Positions 1,060 through 47,683 of a DNA stretch of 49,232 nt are shown here, piece after piece. Within the stretch, counting starts at the first letter, position 1; each line of letters starts with the position of its first letter. The notes beneath the pieces are model-generated. The model was given only the letters and a program-made list of their open reading frames with translations. It did no database searches and had not been told where the DNA came from. This DNA is from Parcubacteria group bacterium GW2011_GWA2_49_9 (GTDB taxonomy: Bacteria; Patescibacteriota; Minisyncoccia; Phycocordibacterales; UBA10002): contig LCQF01000006.1 of the NCBI GenBank assembly GCA_001004005.1, forward strand, positions 1 to 49,232, written 5' to 3'. A program made the translations under genes and the position numbers.

Positions 1060-1103
1060 GAGAGCGGGACGGGAGTGTTCGTTCGTACGCTCCATTCGGT
1101 GAA

Positions 1104-1253
1104 GTAACTCTCCACACCTGTCGAAGAATGTCTTAATTCCTCCTTTTCTAAAGGAGGTGCCCGAGTCTTCGAGGGCGGGGGATTTAGAAAATCCCTTCTG
1201 CATAAGAATGCAGTGCTCCCTTTAGGAAAGGGAGAATAAGAGTGGAGAGGTAC
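1104..1253. mobile_element. MITE-like palindromic element, intergenic full-length copy (~150 bp) with terminal inverted repeats
   Basis: Left end 'gtaactctccac' matches the reverse complement of the right end 'gtggagaggtac' at 11/12. The interior has hairpin modules 'cctccttttctaaaggagg', 'ctgcataagaatgcag' and 'ctccctttaggaaagggag'. The module order parallels the element at 34156-34301. Confidence 0.7.
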
Positions 1254-1328
1254 TTCGGGGGTGCGTTGACTTCTAACGTCTTCGTGTGAATATAGGTTGT
1301 ATTCCCATATAAGGTCTTGAATATTTGT

Positions 1329-21781: not shown

Positions 21782-23095
21782 ATGGCAAAACGAGAATCAG
21801 AATCAAAAGAACTTGAAACAAAGTACGGACTTCCCCGTGATGTCCGGTTTTGCGCTCGGTGCATCATTTCGAACCAACGGCCGAATTCCACCGTGGAATT
21901 CACGCACACCCGCGACTCCAAAAAGAAGACTATTCATTTTGATACGCAAGGCGTCTGTGATGCCTGCAGATTTGCGGAAAAGAAGCAAAGCGAAATAGAC
22001 TGGAAAAAACGCGACGAGGAACTTCGGGAGCTTTGTGACAGGTTTCGCAAAACGAACGGCGAGTACGATTGCATCGTGCCCGGTTCGGGAGGCAAAGACA
22101 GCTTTTACGCGGCGCATATGCTGAAGTACGTCTATGGCATGCATCCGCTCACGGTGACATGGGCTCCACATCTGTACACCGACTGGGGTTGGAAGAATTT
22201 TCAATCGTGGATTCACGCGGGGTTTGATAACTATCTGCATACGCCAAACGGCCGAGTACACCGACTGCTCACGCGCCTTGCCGTCGAAAATCTATTTCAT
22301 CCGTTCCAGCCGTTTATCCTCGGCCAGAAGTCTCTCGCCCCCAAGCTCGCGCTCCGTTTCAACATCCCGCTCGTTTTTTATGGGGAAAACGAAGCCGAGT
22401 ACGGCAACGCGCTCGCGGACCTCGAAAAGGCGGAACGCGACTGGTCGTATTTCACCTCGTCCGACAAAACCAAAGTGTTTCTCGGCGGGGTTTCTGTCTC
22501 GGAACTGCAAAAAAAATACGGAGTCGACGCAGCAGACCTGAAGCCGTATTTTCCCGGGAACCCCAAGGATATGTCGAAGCTCGGACTTGAAGTACATTTT
22601 CTCGGATACTATCTCAAGTGGCACCCCCAATCCGCGTACTACTACGCGGTGGAACATGGCGGCTTTCAAGCCTCTCCCGAGCGCACACCCGGTACGTATA
22701 GTAAGTACAACTCGATTGACGACAAGGTGGACGACCTGCACTATTACACGACGTTCGTGAAATTTGGCATCGGGCGTGCGTCCTATGACGCCTCGCAGGA
22801 AATTCGCAATGGGGAGATAACGCGCACGGAAGGTGTCGCTTTGGTGAAGCGATTCGACGGGGAATATCCAACACGATTTGAAAAAGAACTTTTTGAGTAC
22901 TTGAGCATATCACCCAAAGAATTTCCGCTTGCCCACAAGGAGTTCGCGCATCCCGAGATGACCCGTCAGTATTTTATGAAACTCGCCGATTCGTTCCGCT
23001 CGCCACATTTGTGGAAGAAGGAAGGTACAGAATGGAAGCTTAGACATACCTTAGAGCCTGTTCATAATCTAACCGTATTCTATGGCTCAACATAA
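21782..23095 (+). CDS. N-acetyl sugar amidotransferase (PP-loop ATP pyrophosphatase; WbuX/PseA/WbpG-type)
   Basis: N-terminal Cys pairs 'CARCIISNQRP..GVCDAC', the PP-loop 'VPGSGGKDS', and adjacency to the HisH/HisF-like pair. Confidence 0.85.
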   Translation: MAKRESESKELETKYGLPRDVRFCARCIISNQRPNSTVEFTHTRDSKKKTIHFDTQGVCDACRFAEKKQSEIDWKKRDEELRELCDRFRKTNGEYDCIVPGSGGKDSFYAAHMLKYVYGMHPLTVTWAPHLYTDWGWKNFQSWIHAGFDNYLHTPNGRVHRLLTRLAVENLFHPFQPFILGQKSLAPKLALRFNIPLVFYGENEAEYGNALADLEKAERDWSYFTSSDKTKVFLGGVSVSELQKKYGVDAADLKPYFPGNPKDMSKLGLEVHFLGYYLKWHPQSAYYYAVEHGGFQASPERTPGTYSKYNSIDDKVDDLHYYTTFVKFGIGRASYDASQEIRNGEITRTEGVALVKRFDGEYPTRFEKELFEYLSISPKEFPLAHKEFAHPEMTRQYFMKLADSFRSPHLWKKEGTEWKLRHTLEPVHNLTVFYGST

Positions 23096-23999: not shown

Positions 24000-24239
24000 T
24001 TGTTTTTTTACGGTGAAAATGAAGCCGGCAGATATAATTCAATCGATGATAAGATAGACGATCTTCATTACTACACTACCTTCAAATTCGGTATCAGGAG
24101 AGCGTCACATGATGCTTCTCAAGAGATTCGGAGTGGTGATATGATACGCAGAGGGAGTATTGCTCTTGTCAGACGTTTCGATGGTGAATATCCAATACGA
24201 TTTGAAGAAGAATTGTTTGGCAGTTTAAACTCCCGGTGA
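24000..24239 (+). pseudogene. Relic of a second N-acetyl sugar amidotransferase paralogue (heavily truncated with internal losses)
   Basis: 'FFYGENEA|GRYNSIDDKIDDLHYYTTFKFGIRRASHDASQEIRSGDM..ALVRRFDGEYPIRFEEELF' matches two separated blocks of 21782-23095: 'VFYGENEAEYG' and 'YNSIDDKVDDLHYYTTFVKFGIGRASYDASQEIRNGE..ALVKRFDGEYPTRFEKELF'. An out-of-frame 'MPKKKVCITC' at 23974 resembles the family's N-terminus. Confidence 0.8.
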
Positions 24240-33074: not shown

Positions 33075-34115
33075 ATGACCAATCAATATACACATAAGTG
33101 CGTGTTCGTCACCGGAGGCACGGGCTCGATTGGCTGGCAAATCGTGCTTGAAGCGCTCCGGCACCGCCCAAAGGAGGTTGTCGTCTACAGCCGCGATGAA
33201 ACGGCGCAGTTCGAGCGCAAGTGGGAACTCCCGTCGGACGCGGCGGTCCGTTTTGTCATCGGCGATATCCGCGACAAAGAGCGTCTGCATGAGGCGATGC
33301 GCGGCAGCCACATCGTGTTCCATGCTGCGGCGCTCAAGCACGTGCCGATATGCGAGAGCAACCCTTCCGAGGCGGTGAAGACCAATGTTGTCGGTACGCA
33401 GAACGTGATTGATTGCGCCCTTGAACACAATGTGGAAAAAGTGATCGGCATTTCCACCGATAAAGCCGCGAACGCCAGCAACGTGCTCGGCAGCACCAAG
33501 TTCCTTGCCGAAAAACTTATGCGGGCTACGAATTTGCAGACAGGCGACCGGCAGACTAAATTCTGTTTCGTGCGGTTCGGTAATGTGCTGGGCAGCCGTG
33601 GCTCGGTGGTGCCGCTTTTTGTCGCGCAGGCGAAAGCCGGCGGTCCTCTTACGATTACCGATCCCGCGATGACGCGTTTTTTCATGACCCTTCCGCAGGC
33701 GGTAACGCTTATTTTCAAGGCTGCACAGCTTGTACGCAACCGCGAGATTTTCATCTTGAAAATGCCGACAGCCCGAATGGGGGATCTCGCGCAAGCGGTC
33801 ATTTCGCTTGTCGTTCCGTTGGGAACGAAAAGAAAGAATATCGCGATACGTGTTATCGGCATCCGGGAGGGGGAACGCACTCACGAGGTAATGCTTTCGT
33901 ATGAGGAATCTCGGGTCGCCCTTGAAACGGACGATATGTTCATTCTTTTGCCCGATTCTCATTCGTCTTCGGAACAGGGGTGGAAACAGTCCTATCCGTC
34001 TATGCGTCCGGCCCGCATCGGTGCGTATGAATCGCAAAAAGAGAAGACTCTTTCAGTTGCCGATCTCAAGAAGATGTTGGAACAGGATAACGTACTACGC
34101 CATGCAGACCTGTAA
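33075..34115 (+). CDS. UDP-N-acetylglucosamine 4,6-dehydratase, PseB/FlaA1/CapD family
   Basis: 'VFVTGGTGSIG', 'VYSRDE..Q', 'FVIGDIRDKERL', 'VFHAAALKHVP.CE.NP.EAVKTNV.GT.NVI', 'STDKAANA.NV.G.TK', 'VRFGNVLGSRGSVVPLF', 'ITDP.MTRFFM'. Confidence 0.9.
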   Translation: MTNQYTHKCVFVTGGTGSIGWQIVLEALRHRPKEVVVYSRDETAQFERKWELPSDAAVRFVIGDIRDKERLHEAMRGSHIVFHAAALKHVPICESNPSEAVKTNVVGTQNVIDCALEHNVEKVIGISTDKAANASNVLGSTKFLAEKLMRATNLQTGDRQTKFCFVRFGNVLGSRGSVVPLFVAQAKAGGPLTITDPAMTRFFMTLPQAVTLIFKAAQLVRNREIFILKMPTARMGDLAQAVISLVVPLGTKRKNIAIRVIGIREGERTHEVMLSYEESRVALETDDMFILLPDSHSSSEQGWKQSYPSMRPARIGAYESQKEKTLSVADLKKMLEQDNVLRHADL

Positions 34116-34155
34116 GATGTGCGATTCACCACAAAGAGCATACTCGTTCTCGGTA

Positions 34156-34301
34156 GTAACTCCTCACGCTCTTAACATCCCCCTTATTAAAGGGGGTGGA
34201 CGCATTCTTATGCGCCGGGGGATGTTACCGAACACCCCTCCTGCCGAAGACGGCAGTGCTCCCCTTGCTTAGGGGAGATACAGACGAGTGTGAGGGGTTA
34301 C
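34156..34301. mobile_element. MITE-like palindromic element, intergenic full-length copy (~146 bp) with 16-bp terminal inverted repeats
   Basis: 'gtaactcctcacgctc' (34156-34171) matches the reverse complement of 'gagtgtgaggggttac' (34286-34301) at 14/16. Internal hairpins are 'cccccttattaaaggggg', 'gcgcattcttatgcgc', 'ctgccgaagacggcag' and 'ctccccttgcttaggggag'. Confidence 0.75.
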
Positions 34302-34380
34302 TCTCGATAGAGTGGACACTTTGGCTACTTTGTACTATTTCATTAAACAATAGCGCGGCTCATAACGAGCACACTGTAAA

Positions 34381-35151
34381 ATGACTCGAGAAAAACTGCT
34401 TGCAAACTTAGGGGAACACATGCGGGAGCTCTATGTTACCGGAAAGTATTATGTATCGGTACCGCCGATTCCCGACAAGAACTTTGAAGAGGGGTATTGG
34501 CACACGATTATAGACCCCGACGGAAAGAAGCGCGACCGCCTTGCCGAGAAGGACCAATGTCTTGCCGATATAGACTATGTGTTTGAGTACCTGAAAACCG
34601 TGAAGCACGGTTCGGTGCTTGATGTCGGTTGCGGACTCGGTTGGTTTCTCTCCGCGTTACCCAAGGGTTGGAAAAAATACGGACTTGAGGTCTCGAAAGT
34701 AGCCGCCGAGTATGCGGCAAAGTTTGGAGATATTTTCCATGGAACACTCCTTACGAGTCGTTACAAGGAAAATATGTTTGACGTGATTTTTATGCACCAC
34801 GTCATAGAGCATCTCCCAAAGCCGGAAGATGATTTTAAAGTCATCAAACGGATACTAAAGCCTGGCGGACTGCTGATACTGGGTACCCCCGATTTTGATT
34901 CAGGTTGCGCACGTTTGTTCGGAAAAAATTACCGCCTGCTTCATGACGGGACGCATGTCAGCCTATTCTCAAACGACTCTCTTCATCGCTTTTTACGCGA
35001 CAATGGATTCAGTATAGTGCGTGTTGAATATCCGTTCTGGAAGACACGGTTCTTCACCAAAGAAAATCTGATGCGCCTTTTCAACATCCGTGTTATGTCG
35101 CCACCTTTCTACGGCAATTTTATGACTTTCTTCTGCACCAATGAAAAATAA
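34381..35151 (+). CDS. Class I SAM-dependent methyltransferase
   Basis: 'VLDVGCGLGWFL', 'FDVIFMHHVIEHL', 'LKPGGLLILGTPD'. Confidence 0.87.
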   Translation: MTREKLLANLGEHMRELYVTGKYYVSVPPIPDKNFEEGYWHTIIDPDGKKRDRLAEKDQCLADIDYVFEYLKTVKHGSVLDVGCGLGWFLSALPKGWKKYGLEVSKVAAEYAAKFGDIFHGTLLTSRYKENMFDVIFMHHVIEHLPKPEDDFKVIKRILKPGGLLILGTPDFDSGCARLFGKNYRLLHDGTHVSLFSNDSLHRFLRDNGFSIVRVEYPFWKTRFFTKENLMRLFNIRVMSPPFYGNFMTFFCTNEK

Positions 35152-35791
35152 ACCACGCATCGTGTCCGTACTGTTGGCCCGCGGCGGAAGCAAGGGAATA
35201 CCTCGGAAGAACATCATACCTCTTGGAGGGAAGCCGCTCATACAGTATACGATTGACGCCTCAATACATGGAGGAGCTGATGAAACGTGGGTCAGTACGG
35301 ACAGTGATGAGATTGCCGAAGTCTCTGAACGTCTTGGTGCGAAGATATTGAAACGACCCGCCGAACTTGCGGGCGATACGGCGTCCAGTGAATCCGCGCT
35401 CCTGCATTTCGCGGAGAATGTTGATTTTGACTGGCTTATCTTCATCCAGCCGACGTCGCCCCTCCTCCTTCCCGATGATATAAAAAAGGGAATAACGAAG
35501 ATGAAAGAAGGGAAGTACGATTCGGTTTTCAGTGCCTACGAAGAGCATTGGATGGCGACGTGGGATGAGAAAGGACAGCCGCGGGGGTGGGATATCTTTC
35601 ATCGTCCCCGTCGGCAGGATGCAGAACCAGTCTTCCGCGAGAACGGCGCGTTTTATATCACCAAAAAAGAGCATCTTCTCAAATCAAGACTTCGTTACAG
35701 CGGTATCATTGGTATCGTGGAGATGCCGTTCTATAGAAGCTTTCAGATAGATACGCAAGAGGACCTCGCCTTTGTTGAGAAAATTATATAA
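35141..35791 (+). CDS. Acylneuraminate cytidylyltransferase family, second copy (CMP-ulosonic acid synthetase-like)
   Basis: 'LLARGGSKGIPRKN...GGKPLI.YTI', 'IQPTSPLL', 'RRQD..PVFRENGAFYI'. It overlaps the upstream gene by 11 nt. Confidence 0.87.
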   Translation: MKNKPRIVSVLLARGGSKGIPRKNIIPLGGKPLIQYTIDASIHGGADETWVSTDSDEIAEVSERLGAKILKRPAELAGDTASSESALLHFAENVDFDWLIFIQPTSPLLLPDDIKKGITKMKEGKYDSVFSAYEEHWMATWDEKGQPRGWDIFHRPRRQDAEPVFRENGAFYITKKEHLLKSRLRYSGIIGIVEMPFYRSFQIDTQEDLAFVEKII

Positions 35792-36092
35792 AAGCGGTAT
35801 TGACCCCAGAGCAAGCCCTAGTTTTAAGGAACAAGCAATGCTCGTACTTTGTGGGGACAAGCCTTGCGGTAGTAAACCCTTATATCTGCGTCTAGCTCGG
35901 ACGCCATGAAAACTAAGAAGTTTTCGCGGCTTTCCCTACGGGAACGGTACACCTTTCGCCTTTGAAGACAAACGCTCAAGGTCTTGCGGAAGCTCCACGT
36001 CTTCGCTTCCTCACCTCGCTAGCCGAAATAAACAGACATAGAATTCTCTCTCCCGATTCCGGCATACGTGAGAACTCAAGCGTACCAACTCT

Positions 36093-36665
36093 TTAATCGG
36101 AAAAGGTGTCCTCTACCTCTCCGCATATCGCGTGGATAAGGGCAATCTGTACTTCCTGTATATGCGTCGTACGCGTATCGGTAAGCGCTATCGTGATGTT
36201 GGCGCATCCAGCGAGCAACCCCCCGCTATTTCCTAGAAGACACACACTTGTTATACCAAGGGTTTTTGCTTTTTCCACGGCACGGACGATATTTTTGGAG
36301 GTACCACTTGTGGAAATACCGAAAAAAATATCCTCCGGTTTTGCGAACGCTTCAAGCTGTCTCGCGAATACATCTTCAAACTTATGGTCATTGCTCCACG
36401 CGGTAATGGTTGGAGAAGAAGTGAGAGCGATGGCGGGGCGTGCTCGGCGTTCTTTCATGAATCGTCCGACAAACTCGGTGGCGAAATGCTCTGCGTCTGC
36501 CGCGCTTCCACCGTTTCCGGCGATAAGCAGTTTACCGCCTTTGGCGAAGCACTTGGAAATAAGAGTAGCCGCTGCGCTCACATTTCTCATCAATACCGTG
36601 TCTTCACGTGCCGCATCAATGGCTGCGGCCGTTTCTTTCAAATGTTGTGTAATAAAGGTTTCCAT
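36093..36665 (-). CDS. SIS-domain sugar-phosphate isomerase (GmhA/phosphoheptose isomerase-like)
   Basis: 'GGKLLIAGNGGSAADAEHFATEFVGRF', 'ISTSGTSKN', and a length of 190 aa. Confidence 0.85.
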   Translation of the reverse strand: METFITQHLKETAAAIDAAREDTVLMRNVSAAATLISKCFAKGGKLLIAGNGGSAADAEHFATEFVGRFMKERRARPAIALTSSPTITAWSNDHKFEDVFARQLEAFAKPEDIFFGISTSGTSKNIVRAVEKAKTLGITSVCLLGNSGGLLAGCANITIALTDTRTTHIQEVQIALIHAICGEVEDTFSD

Positions 36666-37729: not shown

Positions 37730-37847
37730 CTCCGCGCAGTCGGAGTCATCCCCACGACGGAACAGCAGTGAAGTAAGCCTGTGTCGTAGTGGAATAGTCG
37801 TAGACTGACTATCGTAGACTATGCGGGGATCCAGAGAATAGTGCATA

Positions 37848-39123: not shown

Positions 39124-39530
39124 ATGGATATAACTCTTAAAACAAAACTAGAAAATATACGGCTGGTCGCCACCGACTTTGACGGCGTGCATACGAACGG
39201 GTGCGTTCATGTTGACGAACACGGCGTTGAAAGCGTCACCTGTAGCCGTAAAGACGGACTGGGCATTGACCTCCTTAAGAAAGCGGGGATAGAGGTGCAT
39301 GTCATCTCTAAAGAGAGAAATCCTGTTGTTGCGGCGCGCTGTATATGGGTGACGACCTCAACGACAAAGCTCCGCTTGAATATGCCGGAGTCGCGATTAC
39401 CGTCGCGGACGGCCATTCCACCCTTTTGTCGTTATGCGACTACGTAACCGAAAGGAGGGGAGGAGACCATGCCATACGGGAAGTAGCGGAACTTATTCTT
39501 GAAGCACAAGGTCACGCGGTCACTTTTTAG
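39124..39530 (+). pseudogene. KdsC-like HAD phosphatase (ulosonate-phosphate phosphatase) split over two frames near 39338-39345
   Basis: Frame A reads 'IRLVATDFDGVHTNG..DEHG.E...CSRKDGLGIDLLKKAGIEVHVISKE.NPVVAAR'. Frame B reads 'YMGDDLNDKAPLEYAGVAITVADGH....CDYVTERRGGDHAIREVAELILEAQG'. About 40-45 aa of the expected linker ('..LGI......DK......') are missing. Confidence 0.75.
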
Positions 39531-41823: not shown

Positions 41824-41864
41824 GACGAGGCTCAACCTCAACCACGACGAGGTTGAGCCTCGTC
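41824..41864. repeat. Perfect 16-bp-stem hairpin at the 3' flank of the RAYT-like gene
   Basis: 'gacgaggctcaacctc-aaccacgac-gaggttgagcctcgtc'. The transposase stop codon lies inside it. Confidence 0.8.
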
Positions 41865-42539
41865 AGCGTATCGGAGCCAGTCAGAAATCTCCCGATTAAA
41901 AGTTGTCTTCTCTGGAAAGTAACCGGGGAACTCTTTTTGGTTGAGAAGTTTAGAAAATTGCCGACTGATGCCGAGATAATCGAAGTAACTTGAATAAGGA
42001 TATTCTGCCAGATATTGTTTCGCTCTCCTCCTGTCTCTAATGCCGTTCTCTTTCCATTTCGGTTCAATGATTTTTACAGGATTAAGGTGAATATATGAAA
42101 ATAGATAGCGCAAATAGGTATCGGTTTTTGCGTGCTTCGCTTTGAACCTTCCTTGAAAAAGCACCCCGTCTCTTTTTCGTCCGATGTTAAAGTACATAGT
42201 ATACGCGGTGGAAAGGCGGTGCATAAAAGCGCTAATGCCGTTTTCCGTGGTTTCGCGTACTAGGAGGTGGAAGTGATTTGGCATAAGACAATATGCGCCG
42301 ATGGCTATGATAGGGGAGTCCATCTTTTCACCGAGCGCGGACTTGATAAGCTCAAGCGAAGTCTCATCTTTCCATGCGGGCAGTCGGTCAAAACGAAAAG
42401 GAGCTTTTCCGTTGCATAGATACAGTAGAAGCATGAACCGTTTTCGGTCCGAATCATTCTCAAAGACAGGTCTTCTCTCAACCCCGCGATTGTAGAGGTG
42501 ATAGTACTCTCCTTCGGCAAATTGTATTTTGCGTGACAT
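41838..42539 (-). mobile_element. IS200/IS605-superfamily Y1 (HUH) transposase, REP-associated tyrosine transposase (RAYT)-like
   Basis: 'YYHLYNRGVERRPVF', the HUH motif in 'YCLMPNHFHLLV', and the catalytic-Tyr region 'RYLFSYIHLNPVK'; 233 aa. Confidence 0.85.
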
Positions 42540-42570
42540 GGTCTGTTAAGCATAACACAACAACAAAATT

Positions 42571-42600
42571 GACGAGGCTCAACCTCGTCACAACCTCGTC
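42571..42600. repeat. Hairpin repeat at the 5' flank of the RAYT-like gene, sharing a 16-mer with 41824-41839
   Basis: 'gacgaggctcaacctcgtcacaacctcgtc'. The first 16 nt are identical and in direct orientation to the other flank; 'gacgagg/cctcgtc' forms a 7-bp stem. Confidence 0.75.
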
Positions 42601-43525: not shown

Positions 43526-44839
43526 ATGCATATTCAGGAACATATTTCTCTTAAAGAACTGACGACGATGAAAATCGGGGGAGACGCCCGCTATTTTTGT
43601 TCTGCCTCGACTGCCGAAGCTTTGGCGGAGGCGGTTTTGTTTGCTCGCGAAAAGAATGTGCCCGTTATTGTGCTTGGTGGAGGTTCCAACACGCTTGTCG
43701 CGAGTGGTGATATTAACGCGCTGGTTCTGAAAATTGAAATCAAGGGGGTTGAGTGGGAATCTCCCTTAGGAAAGTGGAATAGTCGTAGACGAGGAGCACT
43801 CCGACGTGGCGTCGGGGGAGGGTTGTTACAACCCCCGGCGCATCGGAATGCGTCCACCCCCTTTAGTAAGGGGGATTCCGTTCCGGTCGTTGTCGGCGCC
43901 GGTGAGAGCTGGGACGGCTTTGTCGCGCAAGCTGTTGAGAAAGGATTGTGGGGTATTGAAAATCTTTCCGGTATTCCCGGCACCGTAGGCGCCGCCCCTA
44001 TCCAAAATATCGGTGCGTATGGAACGGAAGTCAAAGATACGATTCTGTGGGTAGAGGTGTTTGATATCAAGGCGGGGAAGCTCCGGCGGCTTACAAACGC
44101 CGAATGCCGGTTCGCGTACCGCGACAGTATGTTTAAGCATCAGGTGGAAGGACCGTTCATCGTCTGCCGTGTGGCTTTTCTCCTCCGGAAAGATGGCGTT
44201 CCTAATTTGGAATATAAAGATTTACAAAAATATTTCGGGAATCTTTCCTCCCCTCCTTTCCAAGGTGAGAAGCGAATACTTGGAGCTTCGCAAGACCTTG
44301 AGCGTCCGTCTTCGGACGCGAAAGGTGTACAGCTTCGGTACGAAGGGGATAAGAGGGGTGGTAGTTTTCCTTCTCTCCAGCAAATCCGCAACGCTGTTAT
44401 TGAAATCCGTTCCGGGAAATTCCCCGACCTGCGGGAATTTGGTACCGCCGGTTCATTCTTCAAAAATCCGATTATCTCAAAGAAACAGTTTGATGAATTG
44501 AAAGAGAGATACCCGAATCTTCCAGGATTTCCTCTTAGCCTCTCCCCCTCTTTAGAGGGGGAGATTGAGAGGTGGTGCACCCCACCCACCCTCCCCTCTA
44601 AAGAGGGGAGGAGGGAAGAAAAGGTGAAAATCCCGCTTGCGTGGGTACTCGACAATATTTGCAATCTTAAAGGTTTCAAAAAAGGAAATGTCGCCTTGTT
44701 TGAGAAACAGCCGATTGTGCTCGTGCACAGCGGAGAGGCGACCTCGGAAGAAATTGAATTGTTCGCGAAAGAAATTGCGGACATCGTAAAAGTAAAAACC
44801 GGAATTGAAATTGAGTGGGAGGTGCAAAGAATATTTTAA
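43526..44839 (+). CDS. murB: UDP-N-acetylenolpyruvoylglucosamine reductase, enlarged by three in-frame repeat-derived insertions
   Basis: 'LTTMKIGGDARYF', 'VLGGGSNTLV', 'VVVGAGESWD', 'GIENLSGIPGTVGAAPIQNIGAYG.EV', 'C.FAYRDS.FK', 'GSFFKNP', 'IPLAWVLD..G.KG...G...L.EKQPIVLV'. It is 437 aa versus ~300 aa typical. Confidence 0.9.
   Translation: MHIQEHISLKELTTMKIGGDARYFCSASTAEALAEAVLFAREKNVPVIVLGGGSNTLVASGDINALVLKIEIKGVEWESPLGKWNSRRRGALRRGVGGGLLQPPAHRNASTPFSKGDSVPVVVGAGESWDGFVAQAVEKGLWGIENLSGIPGTVGAAPIQNIGAYGTEVKDTILWVEVFDIKAGKLRRLTNAECRFAYRDSMFKHQVEGPFIVCRVAFLLRKDGVPNLEYKDLQKYFGNLSSPPFQGEKRILGASQDLERPSSDAKGVQLRYEGDKRGGSFPSLQQIRNAVIEIRSGKFPDLREFGTAGSFFKNPIISKKQFDELKERYPNLPGFPLSLSPSLEGEIERWCTPPTLPSKEGRREEKVKIPLAWVLDNICNLKGFKKGNVALFEKQPIVLVHSGEATSEEIELFAKEIADIVKVKTGIEIEWEVQRIF
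43760..43879. repeat. Palindromic-element copy inside murB (reverse orientation relative to 34156-34301), in-frame
   Basis: 43832-43874 matches the reverse complement of 34179-34221 at 40/43. The flanking modules 'tctcccttaggaaag' and 'gcactccgacg..cgtcggggg' are co-linear with the reverse complement of 34222-34275. Confidence 0.8.
44247..44361. repeat. Second hairpin-rich insertion inside murB, in-frame (boundaries approximate)
   Basis: Bounded by the inverted 'cctcccctc' / 'gaggggtgg'. It contains 'gcgtccg-tctt-cggacgc' and encodes 'LSSPPFQGEKRILGASQDLERPSSDAKGVQLRYEGDKRGGSFP', which has no counterpart in the MurB fold as I know it. Confidence 0.55.
44540..44612. repeat. Third insertion inside murB: two G/C-homopolymer hairpins, in-frame (boundaries approximate)
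   Basis: 'ctccccctctttagagggggag' and 'cctcccctctaaagaggggagg', encoding 'LSPSLEGEIERWCTPPTLPSKEGRRE'. Confidence 0.6.
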
Positions 44840-44995: not shown

Positions 44996-45082
44996 ATGGC
45001 AAAGAAGAAACGAAAAGCGACGAAGAAGCGCAAGACGGCGAAGAAAGGCAAGAAGCGCAAGACCGCAAAGCGACGCCGATAA
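44996..45082 (+). CDS. 28-aa lysine/arginine-rich micro-protein (hypothetical)
   Basis: An ATG..TAA ORF 'MAKKKRKATKKRKTAKKGKKRKTAKRRR', followed 3 nt later by a strong terminator hairpin. It was not in the ORF track because it is under 60 aa. Confidence 0.4.
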   Translation: MAKKKRKATKKRKTAKKGKKRKTAKRRR

Positions 45083-45085
45083 ATC

Positions 45086-45117
45086 AAAACTCCTCCGACA
45101 TATGTCGGGGGAGTTTT
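45086..45117 (+). terminator. Rho-independent terminator candidate
   Basis: 'aaaactcctccgaca-tat-gtcgggggagtttt' followed by 'gtat'. Confidence 0.65.
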
Positions 45118-47071
45118 GTATCCGTGATTGTCACTCGAAAATAAGCAGAGCACGGGTGAAGGGTTAAGGATTAAAGATTAAGGATTTCTATGTTAGTATT
45201 GCCCCATGTTTGATGGATTAAAAAAGCTATTCGGGGACGACACGGTGGCCAAGCTAAAGCCTCTTTTGGGGAACGTAGAGAAAATAAACCGCTTGGAAGA
45301 AGGCCTCAAAGCGCTGCCTAAAGAGGCGCTTAAAGAAAAGACCGCTGAACTGAAAGCCCGATTACAGAAGGGTGAGACGTTGGATGATATCCTACCCGAA
45401 GCGTTCGCGCTCGTGCGCGAATCGTCGCGGCGCACGCTTGGCGAACGGCACTTTGACGTACAACTTCTCGGCGGACAAGTCTTACATAACCGCGGCATCG
45501 CGGAGATGCGTACCGGAGAAGGGAAGACACTTGTCGCGACGCTCCCTTCGTATCTTAACGGGGGTTGTTAATCATGATTCTTCTTTTTTGTATGACCCAC
45601 TGCATAGTTCTAAGTTGGAAGTTGAAAGTTCAGAGTCAGAAAACCTAAAACTTAAAACTGATAACTTAAAACTTGACGAGACAAGGGACACACTTGGCTC
45701 GTTCAAGGTCGTGCATGAATTCCTGCGGCCGTGCACCCGGCGTGAAGCGTACGCCGCGGATATCACGTACGGCACCAACAACGAATTCGGGTTTGATTAC
45801 CTTCGCGACAATCTTGAGTATGACCCTGCGCGGCTCCGTCAGCGCGATTTCAACTATGCGATTGTGGACGAGATTGACTCCATCCTTATTGACGAGGCGC
45901 GAACCCCGCTCATTATTTCCGCCCCCACGGGTGATTCGGAAGATTTATACGCGCGGTTCGCGCAGATTGCGGGAGGCCTTGCGGCGGATACGGATTTTAC
46001 GGTAGACGAAAAACAAAAAGCGATTCAGCTCACGCCCGCGGGTATTGAGAAAGCGGAAAAGGCGCTCGGAATCGGCAATATCTACACCGAGAAAGGCATC
46101 AAGTACGTACACCATCTTGAAACCGCCGTACGGGCGAAAGCGCTCTTCCAACTTGATAAAGAGTACGTGGTGAAGAACGGCGAAATCATTATCGTGGACG
46201 AATTTACCGGCCGTATGATGCCGGGGAGGCGTTGGAGTGAAGGGTTGCATCAGGCGATTGAAGCGAAAGAAGGCGTGAAGGTGCAGAAAGAATCCCGCAC
46301 GTTTGCGTCCATCACGTTCCAGAATTATTTCAGAATGTACAAAAAGCTCGCCGGGATGACGGGTACCGCGAAAACCAGCTCCGAAGAGTTTTACAAAGTG
46401 TATGGACTTGACGTCGTTTCTATCCCGACTAACAAGCCGATTGCCCGTGCTGACCGGAACGACCAGATTTTTCAGACGGAGACGGGGAAGTACAAGGCCA
46501 TCGCGAAGAAGGTCGCGGAACTGAACAAAAAAGGCCAGCCCGTTCTCATCGGCACGGTCTCCATTGAGAAAAACGAAGTGCTTTCCGAGTACCTGCGTAC
46601 GGTCGGCGTCCCTCACGAACTTTTGAATGCCAAAAATCACGAACGGGAAGGAGAAATTATCGCCCAAGCGGGACGGCGTGGAGCGGTGACCGTCGCGACT
46701 AATATGGCTGGCCACGGCGCATTGATAACCAGCTTCGCGGACGCAGCGGACGACAGGGAGACCCCGGCGAAACGCAATTCTTCGTTTCAATGGAAGACAC
46801 ATTGATGCGGGTCTTTGCCGCGGATACTATCAAGAGTGTTATGGGGAAATTCGGTATTCCCGAAGACGAGCCGATTGAAAACAGGATGATTACCCGCTCG
46901 CTTGAATCGGCACAGACGAAAATTGAAGGCTTCAACTTTGATTCGCGCAAGCACGTACTGGAATACGACAACGTGCTCAATCACCAGCGCACCGTTATTT
47001 ATGAACGCCGGCGCAAGATGTTGCTCGGCGGCCCCGAAGCGGTGGATGAGTATCTCACTATGCTCTCGGCA

Positions 47072-47126
47072 GGGGAATCCCCCTTAGAAAAGGGGGTGCC
47101 TCCGTCTTCGGAGGCGGGGGTTGTGA
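47072..47126. repeat. Palindromic-element core inside the secA C-terminal region, in-frame
   Basis: 'cccccttagaaaagggggtg-cctccgtcttcggagg-cgggggttgtga' has the same hairpin1-TG-hairpin2-CGGGGG layout as 1139-1181 and 34179-34221. It encodes 'ESPLEKGVPPSSEAGVV'. Confidence 0.7.
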
Positions 47127-47493
47127 ATTTCGGCAAGCTCGTTGAGCAGAAAAAGCAGCAGCTCGGTGCGGAGTTCTACCCGGCCATTTCGCGCCTTATC
47201 CTCCAGACCATTGACCTCTTCTGGGTGGAGCATCTGGAAGTGATGGATTATTTGCGCGGTTCCGTAAATTTGCGCGCGTATGGCCAGCGCGACCCGCTCG
47301 TGGAATATAAGCGGGAAGGACTCAAACTTTTCAAGGATATGGAAGAGAATATCGTGAATCAGGTACTGCACGTCTTTCCACACGTTGGCGGTGCTCCCAT
47401 ACAGGAACAGGTCAAATTACAGGAGGTACACGAGCAGGCCCAGCTTATCGGCTCGGGCGATGAAGAGTCCGATGCGCAGCATCACGGCAATAT

Positions 47494-47524
47494 CCCCCTT
47501 AACAAAGGGGGTGGCCTGGGGGGG
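47494..47524. repeat. Truncated palindromic-element core inside the secA C-terminal linker, in-frame
   Basis: 'cccccttaacaaagggggtggcctggggggg', encoding 'IPLNKGGGLGGL'. Confidence 0.6.
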
Positions 47525-47683
47525 TTGTCGTCTTCACGTTCGGAACCGAAAAATCCCGACGGTTCGCGCATCGGTCGCAACGACCCCTGCTTCTGCGGAA
47601 GCGGCAAGAAGTATAAGAAGTGCCATGGAGTGTAGAGTCAGCGTTTTTCTTGCCCTCTGTAGAAAGAGGCAAAAACCCTTGTT

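Follow-up and report, generated by a model that had tools for sequence, protein, structure and literature searches.

The murB gene (UDP-N-acetylenolpyruvoylglucosamine reductase; 43526-44839, + strand) of a Candidatus Taylorbacteria-like member of the Parcubacteria holds three repeat-derived inserts, all in frame. The gene lies on a Rifle groundwater scaffold (contig LCQF01000006.1, Parcubacteria group bacterium GW2011_GWA2_49_9), of which the whole stretch analyzed, 49,232 nt, is hereafter called the window. The closest MurB homologs are labelled Candidatus Taylorbacteria or Parcubacteria in their source records. The inserts occupy three sites (site 1, 43759-43876; site 2, 44263-44365; site 3, 44539-44614), and their reality as in-frame repeat inserts is confirmed. 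They appear to work like the Rickettsia palindromic elements (RPEs), an analogy of behavior that carries no claim of membership. An initial annotation had reported a palindromic mobile-element copy in the first position and had overlooked the other two. We consider it likely that hairpin-array repeats colonized loops of MurB and variable regions of SecA, through an old entry followed by later exchange of modules.

An enlarged MurB and the hairpin array at site 1

The product of the 437-aa open reading frame (ORF) can be assigned to MurB, with domains, predicted fold and conserved motifs all present. Pfam recognizes FAD_binding_4 (1.7e-21) and MurB_C (2.4e-16), and phmmer against the PDB returns a MurB match at 2.6e-56. 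Foldseek aligns the AlphaFold (AF2) model with P. aeruginosa MurB (4jay) at a template-modeling (TM) score (target) of 0.93 and a root-mean-square deviation (rmsd) of 2.3 Å. In the alignment with solved MurB, the YRDS and GSFFKNP motifs correspond, and R199, S310 and E432, which we take to be the equivalents of the E. coli catalytic residues Arg159, Ser229 and Glu325, are invariant among 62 orthologs.

The protein is ~100 aa longer than orthologs without inserts. Its alignment to the solved P. aeruginosa enzyme falls into four blocks (residues 2-74, 116-231, 273-337 and 365-432), between which the window MurB has 41, 41 and 27 residues and the crystal structure has 7, 4 and 2. Peptides predicted from the inserts include GVGGGLLQPPAHR, NASTPFSK, ILGASQDLERPSSDAK and WCTPPTLPSK. 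The predicted local distance difference test (pLDDT) score is 85-97 in the core of the model, below 50 in residues 83-113 (insert 1) and 242-278 (insert 2), and ~56 in residues 338-364 (insert 3). The model suggests that the inserts leave the MurB fold intact. At site 1, residues 75-115 face only the 7 residues of the P. aeruginosa enzyme, and many orthologs have 2-7 aa in the same region, which bears out the initial expectation that MurB normally forms a short turn here.

Insert 1 is a chain of five hairpins (H1 to H5) running from ATCTCCC to GGGGGAT on the + strand (43759-43876, ends uncertain by a few bases). It is read as SPLGKWNSRRRGALRRGVGGGLLQPPAHRNASTPFSKGD and stands in the protein as ...VEWES-PLGKWNSRRRGALRRGVGGGLLQPPAHRNASTPFSKG-DSVPVVVG. 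The ORF continues uninterrupted through the segment, as first described, and only two of the six frames across the insert are open. The predicted RNA fold reaches -59.9 kcal/mol (z -4.7), and H1 is disrupted by a nested 11-nt mini-repeat, TAGTCGTAGAC, at 43780-43790. The best-conserved core (43825-43876, + strand), made up of the 3' half of H3 together with H4 and H5, matches an intergenic element at 34177-34228 in reverse complement. The count originally given, 40 of 43 positions between 43832-43874 and the reverse complement of 34179-34221, proved exact; when the window was shuffled 200 times, the best 43-mer had 24.2 matching positions on average, and no shuffle gave more than 27. A repeat search lengthens the match to 52 nt at 90% (34177-34228 / 43825-43876), and blastn gives 65 nt at 84.6% for the same pair. 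Co-linearity of the neighboring modules, also part of the original claim, holds in the alignment for H1 ('TCTCCC..') and for GAGCAC with the H2 hairpin. Across ~155 kb of related DNA, blastn with insert 1 returned many matches, and the module order was always the same.

The intergenic partner is a classical MITE (a miniature inverted-repeat transposable element): small, non-coding and multi-copy, with terminal inverted repeats (TIRs) and target-site duplications (TSDs) of fixed length. The full-length window copy measures 146 bp (34156-34301, - strand) and sits between two + strand genes. Its 16-nt TIRs, GTAACCCCTCACACTC / GAGCGTGAGGAGTTAC, enclose the same five-hairpin array, and the flanking 8-bp duplication, TCTCGGTA (34148-34155) / TCTCGATA (34302-34309), matches at 7 of 8 positions. 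Folding gives z values of -7.1 and -6.5 on the two strands. The family was defined from a metagenome scan for the H4-H5 core, which returned 10 loci that were then aligned; these measure 145-188 bp and have the H1 to H5 interior. The 16-nt TIR (GTAACCCCTCACACTC / GAGTGTGAGGGGTTAC) stands at both ends in nine loci (at least nine in related metagenome contigs). Over these nine, the TSD matches at 8/8 in five, 7/8 in two (the window copy included), 5/8 in one and 3/8 in one, and the chance of 7/8 or better is ~5e-4. At least seven MITE loci lie on contigs of the related bin IMG Ga0075991, at 86-95% identity. The copies have no ORF of their own. At two related loci, L008 and L009 (L-numbers denote related metagenome or metagenome-assembled genome (MAG) loci; P-numbers denote MurB homologs and their genomes), ORFs across MITE copies were considered as coding insertions and rejected as mechanical extensions upstream of real starts.

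A second, diverged MITE-like element with five hairpins occupies 1101-1256 (+ strand), downstream of an epimerase gene. It is ~73% identical to the 34-kb copy and has its own TIR, GAAGTAACTCTCCAC…, with no clear target duplication. The sister family to which it belongs keeps all five hairpins via compensatory changes, 9 of 22 consensus pairs being altered on both sides.

The murB copy is not itself such a MITE insertion. It lacks the 16-nt TIR and the 8-bp duplication, and the same is true of the murB copies at L004 (the locus of P0005 murB) and L006 (the murB contig of GTDB MAG JBBUCR01) and of a copy in pheT, all of which start with ATCTCCC and stop with GGGGGAT. Because TIR ends and duplication are absent, insert 1 was not placed by ordinary transposition of the MITE. 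The original description of an in-frame palindromic mobile-element copy stands as to DNA-level homology with a dispersed palindromic repeat. It does not stand as to the whole element, of which only the inner array is present.

Since the same ends recur in several contexts, the array can be regarded as a discrete unit. Two other species carry it in murB (L004/P0005 and L006), P0002 murB holds it at sites 2 and 3 with both orientations represented, and further copies stand free between genes. In pheT of Ga0075991 (L011 737-847) it is in frame and read as ESPLEKGALPSSAGG…PPLLRG, near the PheT N-terminus, at the position of the B2 domain in E. coli PheT. The left junction, GA followed directly by ATCTCCC, is common to the murB and pheT copies. 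In the array alignment (A3; window 34177-34279 and 1136-1237, loci L004-L014), the H2 and H4 stems differ fully among copies, with a tetraloop that in nearly all cases reads TCTT (AAGA from the opposite strand). The whole array is dyad-symmetric, with H1 resembling H5 and H2 resembling H4, each in reverse complement. The mini-repeat TAGTCGTAGAC has three related copies clustered in intergenic 37775-37822 and at least 10 sites in loci L006-L016, nested in H1 or H5 loops of several arrays; two murB copies have it in H1, and MITE copies in H1/H5.

The insert hairpins are not followed by a terminator-like T-tail, and no tRNA lies nearby. Rfam 15 gave no match at gathering thresholds over the whole window, and a scan of 33900-36200 at expectation values (E) up to 1 gave only one chance snoRNA match.

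Further inserts and other coding hosts

Insert 2 (44263-44365, + strand) belongs to a separate repeat family and is read as GEKRILGASQDLERPSSDAKGVQLRYEGDKRGG. An intergenic copy of this family, at 35937-36016 (- strand) between convergent genes, matches it in reverse complement at 87% over 70 nt (35947-36016), and an intergenic copy at L016 4928-5036 is 85% identical to it over 109 nt. Insert 2 also matches site 1, not site 2, of P0002 murB (90% over 83 nt), and the window (at site 2) and P0002 (at site 1) both read it as GASQDLE…DAKGVQ. In P0004 murB, insert-2 DNA is nested in the site-2 hairpin and read in another frame, VRSEDLELRKTLS….

Insert 3 (44539-44614, + strand) is a 76-nt palindrome in which two inverted hairpins, TCTCCCCCTCTTTAGAGGGGGAGA and CCTCCCCTCTAAAGAGGGGAGG, are combined. 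It folds at z -4.3 and is read as LSPSLEGEIERWCTPPTLPSKEGRR. Its family occurs at site 2 in the MurBs of P0014, P0004, P0016 and P0020. Likewise, some orthologs read the H1-H2 module as GALPSSAGG and others as KGSTPSSEEG. Site, reading frame and orientation thus all vary for the same DNA; hence the homology lies at the nucleotide level, and these are repeat insertions rather than conserved protein loops.

Two hairpin modules also lie in frame in secA. One combines an H5-type hairpin with an H4-type variant (47074-47121, + strand) and is read as ESPLEKGVPPSSEAGV; it is shared with SecA of the P0003 genome and absent from that of the P0014 genome. The other lies in the C-terminal linker (47489-47530, + strand), is read as IPLNKGGGLGGLS, and is absent from two SecA orthologs, that of the P0014 genome included. 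Both sit in variable regions of SecA. All five window inserts (three in murB, two in secA) are in frame and stop-free. Because all five keep frame and avoid stops, because only two of the six frames of insert 1 are open, and because no terminator-like tail follows the hairpins, the murB insert is most probably transcribed with the gene and translated within MurB.

Single C5/G5 hairpins were also observed in frame in bin Ga0075991, in a dinB-like gene (L009 2248-3435), a transketolase C gene (L011 13024-13626) and a tetratricopeptide repeat (TPR) protein gene (L013 5165-5866). Overall, related arrays occur in murB (three sites), secA (two), pheT, dinB-like and transketolase-C genes, together with intergenic copies. 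The RPE precedent invoked in the initial annotation is therefore apt for the wider repeat family, given related arrays in frame in pheT, secA and other murB sites, and does not extend to the exact core, which was not found in other genes.

The window record differs from other assemblies within secA. At 45560/45561 and 46712/46713, stretches of 104 nt and 106 nt are missing from it that are genuine coding sequence of SecA; L001 and L002, two further assemblies of the same population, contain them, and their absence splits the window secA into three frames. The idea that the elements caused the frame breaks was rejected, as the breaks correspond to this missing coding sequence. Near 39341 the assemblies differ a third time, at a point where L001 has an N-gap. 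These breaks and the 39341 difference look like artefacts of the window record, not biology.

Two further features of the window were recorded. Between murB and secA, a 28-codon Lys/Arg-rich ORF, MAKKKRKATKKRKTAKKGKKRKTAKRRR (44997-45083, + strand), contains 18-27-nt tandem repeats and is followed by a near-perfect hairpin (45085-45118); the source records do not call it as a gene. The strongest self-match of the window is a direct repeat of 190 nt at 71% identity (22706-22895 / 24033-24219), which probably represents two paralogous coding segments.

Age of the inserts and competing explanations

The distribution of inserts was surveyed in an alignment (A1) of 62 MurB orthologs of 328-477 aa, with an insert counted at 15 aa or more. 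Site 1 is occupied in 24 of the 62, site 2 in 12 and site 3 in 10. In total, 32 MurBs carry at least one insert, at the same three variable sites, and 30 carry none. One insert-free MurB, P0012 (338 aa), lies in the same Wzy_C…murB-secA gene order, so that this comparison is between true orthologs. The site-1 copies of three species are read in the same frame. Common to several species, the site-1 insert is old and inherited, or else site-specific, and not a recent hop. Variation at the C-terminus was seen as well: five homologs (P0013, P0014, P0020, P0032 and P0051) share an extension, 'AFIGG(N/D)KSHPA(L/R)DAGS…', past the normal end, as if another repeat had replaced the stop codon.

In the explanation that we regard as likely, this lineage would carry families of small non-coding repeats built as chains of short G+C-rich hairpins. 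One such unit, the five-hairpin array of ~100-120 nt bounded by ATC(T/C)CCC…GGGGGAT, occurs alone between genes, nested in a MITE, and inside genes. A copy may have entered murB in an ancestor shared by several species, at the loop that follows the 'EWES' strand. It would have survived because it fell in a surface loop, had a net length that is a multiple of three, and is read in one of its two stop-free frames. Its C-run and G-run stems would translate to a Pro/Gly/Ser/Arg-rich peptide, modeled with low confidence (pLDDT <50), that to judge from the model leaves the MurB fold intact. Two further MurB loops and two SecA variable regions would have been colonized likewise by related repeat families. 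Later change presumably came from hairpins nesting into hairpin loops and from modules swapped with dispersed copies, probably by gene conversion, an exchange that would also account for the stronger conservation of the core relative to the codons around it. In line with such exchange, H2 is of the CCGACG type in the window murB copy and of the GCCGTCTTCGGC type in the L006 murB copy, and both types occur among MITE copies. We infer an old insertion, then altered by module exchange (gene conversion) and nested insertions.

Several observations weigh against this explanation. The 16-nt TIRs are missing from the murB copy, as is any detectable target duplication, and no autonomous transposase or insertion sequence (IS) with these ends was found in ~165 kb of related DNA or in viral contigs. 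The survey itself is biased to in-frame cases, as the protein database holds intact ORFs only. The murB copies of three species share a derived H4 loop, CGGA (AAGA in the MITEs), and a short H3, features that point to one old insertion rather than mobility today. The core is identical at 42 of 42 positions between the window and L006 murB, and at 47 of 48 in the core region between the window and L004 murB, with flanking third codon positions at only 42-65% identity between these species. The probability of such identity is ~6e-6 for L006 (4e-4 on the most generous flank identity) and ~6e-8 for L004, a degree of conservation that neutral 'junk in a loop' does not predict. A rough neighbor-joining tree, star-like and weak, pairs each site-1 carrier with insert-free sisters; hence a single origin would need many precise losses or lateral exchange. 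Finally, the exact core looks confined to murB. HMMER with the 38-aa insert peptide against 1.84 billion cluster representatives found no other protein at E up to 0.001, which implies that the exact core did not disperse into a large number of genes. The 42-aa insert peptide gave no candidate in a word-index search, a search with the strict core (24 specified bases) in one genome per GTDB species found only the murB copy in MAG JBBUCR01, and viral contigs contained neither core nor TIR.

The patchy distribution of carriers, each beside insert-free sisters, would also follow from active site-specific homing, in which a TIR-less, TSD-less array travels as single-stranded DNA with the help of a hairpin-recognizing enzyme (e.g., IS200/IS605-type or REP-associated Y1, REP standing for repetitive extragenic palindrome) and enters the same murB position independently in several species. 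The constant hairpin ends of the murB and pheT copies, their identical left junction, the near-identity of the core across species with diverged flanks, and the conserved TCTT/AAGA loops on varying stems all agree with it. A candidate enzyme is encoded nearby: a Y1 tyrosine transposase gene, IS200-like or like the REP-associated tyrosine transposases (RAYTs), lies at 41838-42539 (- strand; Pfam Y1_Tnp, E 6e-9) between the Wzy_C gene and murB, ~1 kb upstream of the latter; the syntenic locus of P0012 lacks it. Inverted REP-like hairpins, GACGAGGnnnnnCCTCGTC, flank the gene at 41824-41864 and 42570-42590. These are unlike the array hairpins H1-H5 and occur otherwise only once, on the murB contig L006 (1289-1307); they are not dispersed in the DNA examined. 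As the flanking hairpins are unrelated and undispersed, the Y1 enzyme is kept only as a minor candidate for mobilizing the array. Moreover, the murB copies share derived features unseen in other copies, as expected from common descent, no identical donor was found (the nearest copies, L007/L015, reach 95% over 62 nt), and the tree is poorly resolved. We thus judge homing unlikely. A broader and more speculative proposal, to which we give a small but real chance, is that the arrays are an undescribed kind of mobile or self-propagating DNA without terminal repeats or duplications. They would prefer hairpin loops and a few coding sites, move through a hairpin-recognizing single-strand transposase or template switching, and then be kept in essential genes for their DNA or RNA structure (as a recombination or conversion hot spot, for translation pausing or for mRNA stabilizing), with the peptide as a by-product.

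The remaining alternatives question the insert itself. Removal by RNA excision or translational bypass, which would leave a MurB of normal size, draws on the strong RNA structure of the inserts and on nucleotide conservation of the core beyond the needs of the peptide. It is very unlikely, since the five window inserts and all orthologous ones examined as DNA keep frame and avoid stops, as expected only if they are translated; in addition, no Rfam intron or ribozyme family matches, and the elements are far smaller than any self-splicing intron. An ordinary lineage-specific MurB loop, whose intergenic resemblance is coincidental or irrelevant, is hardly credible. Loop length does vary in MurB generally, and the ancestral loop that the initial annotation had set against its own claim finds partial support, since in P0005/L004 and JBBUCR01/L006 a homologous insert occupies this site and is read in this frame. 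Such a loop, however, accounts neither for a 40/43 nucleotide match where shuffles reach at most 27 nor for the same module order at nine or more non-coding MITE loci. Related modules moreover vary in site, reading frame and orientation, the insert folds to perfect hairpins (z -4.7), synonymous positions are more conserved than in the flanks, and the intergenic copies, with TIRs and TSDs of their own, are not murB pseudogene fragments. The chance that assembly or scaffolding wrongly joined a repeat into murB is practically negligible. The window record does contain the secA artefacts described above, yet the murB region was compared across three separate assemblies (the ENA scaffold, a megahit assembly of SRR1658344 and JGI 3300025308), in which the protein is identical and 1-3 mismatches occur in 6.2 kb. 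As these independent assemblies agree, the murB insert is real and not a misassembly; orthologous inserts in other species and samples and the uninterrupted, in-frame MurB sequence around the insert point the same way.

Relation to known repeat systems

The array resembles the RPEs (Ogata et al.) in several respects. Both are palindromic, non-autonomous repeats of 100-150 nt that occur between genes and in frame in unrelated housekeeping genes, where the added peptide is compatible with the host fold and orthologous insertions are common to several species. The two are likened by description only, and their sequences are unrelated as far as judged. The host phylum also differs, being here the Patescibacteria, or Candidate Phyla Radiation (CPR). 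Unlike RPEs, the repeats described here are chains in which five short, G+C-rich hairpins follow one another and which lengthen by nesting, and the array also rides inside a MITE with TIRs and TSDs. Across an ortholog family, three loops of a single gene recur as hot spots, the same DNA is read in several frames, and the exact core has murB as its only coding host.

Bacterial MITEs with occasional in-frame gene fusions have been reported as well, including the QMITEs of Coxiella (PMC5896051), intragenic ERIC sequences and the MITEs of Anabaena (reviewed in PMC10969869). The 146-bp intergenic element agrees with classical MITEs in its TIRs, 8-bp duplications, multiple near-identical copies and lack of an ORF, whereas the murB insert, without TIRs or TSD, corresponds to an internal MITE module and not to a MITE insertion. 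REP/REPIN-RAYT systems and other palindrome-associated elements derived from IS200/IS605 share with this case the short G+C-rich hairpins and insertion without TIR or TSD. The Y1 transposase gene with its inverted hairpins ~1 kb upstream of murB adds to this likeness. The Y1-flanking hairpins nonetheless differ in sequence and are not dispersed in the DNA examined, and REPs are extragenic by definition. A literature search on MITE, REP or RPE-type elements in CPR/Patescibacteria found no relevant report, in keeping with the initial remark that no description of this behavior there was known.

The finding would extend selfish DNA inside protein-coding genes, for 25 years known almost only from Rickettsia, to the CPR, whose genomes are small and in which murB, secA and pheT are presumed to be strongly constrained. 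It would account for the many CPR proteins that exceed their homologs in length and have low-complexity, Pro/Gly-rich loops, which bears on how these organisms are annotated, on the prediction of their protein structures and on phylogenies built from alignments. Most deserving of follow-up are the nested, modular architecture, the three hot spots that recur, and the conservation at the nucleotide level. Together, three hot spots over 62 MurB orthologs, with one DNA read in different frames, offer a natural data set of tolerated loop insertions, and nucleotide-level conservation combined with hairpin nesting raises the testable question of how TIR-less arrays move.

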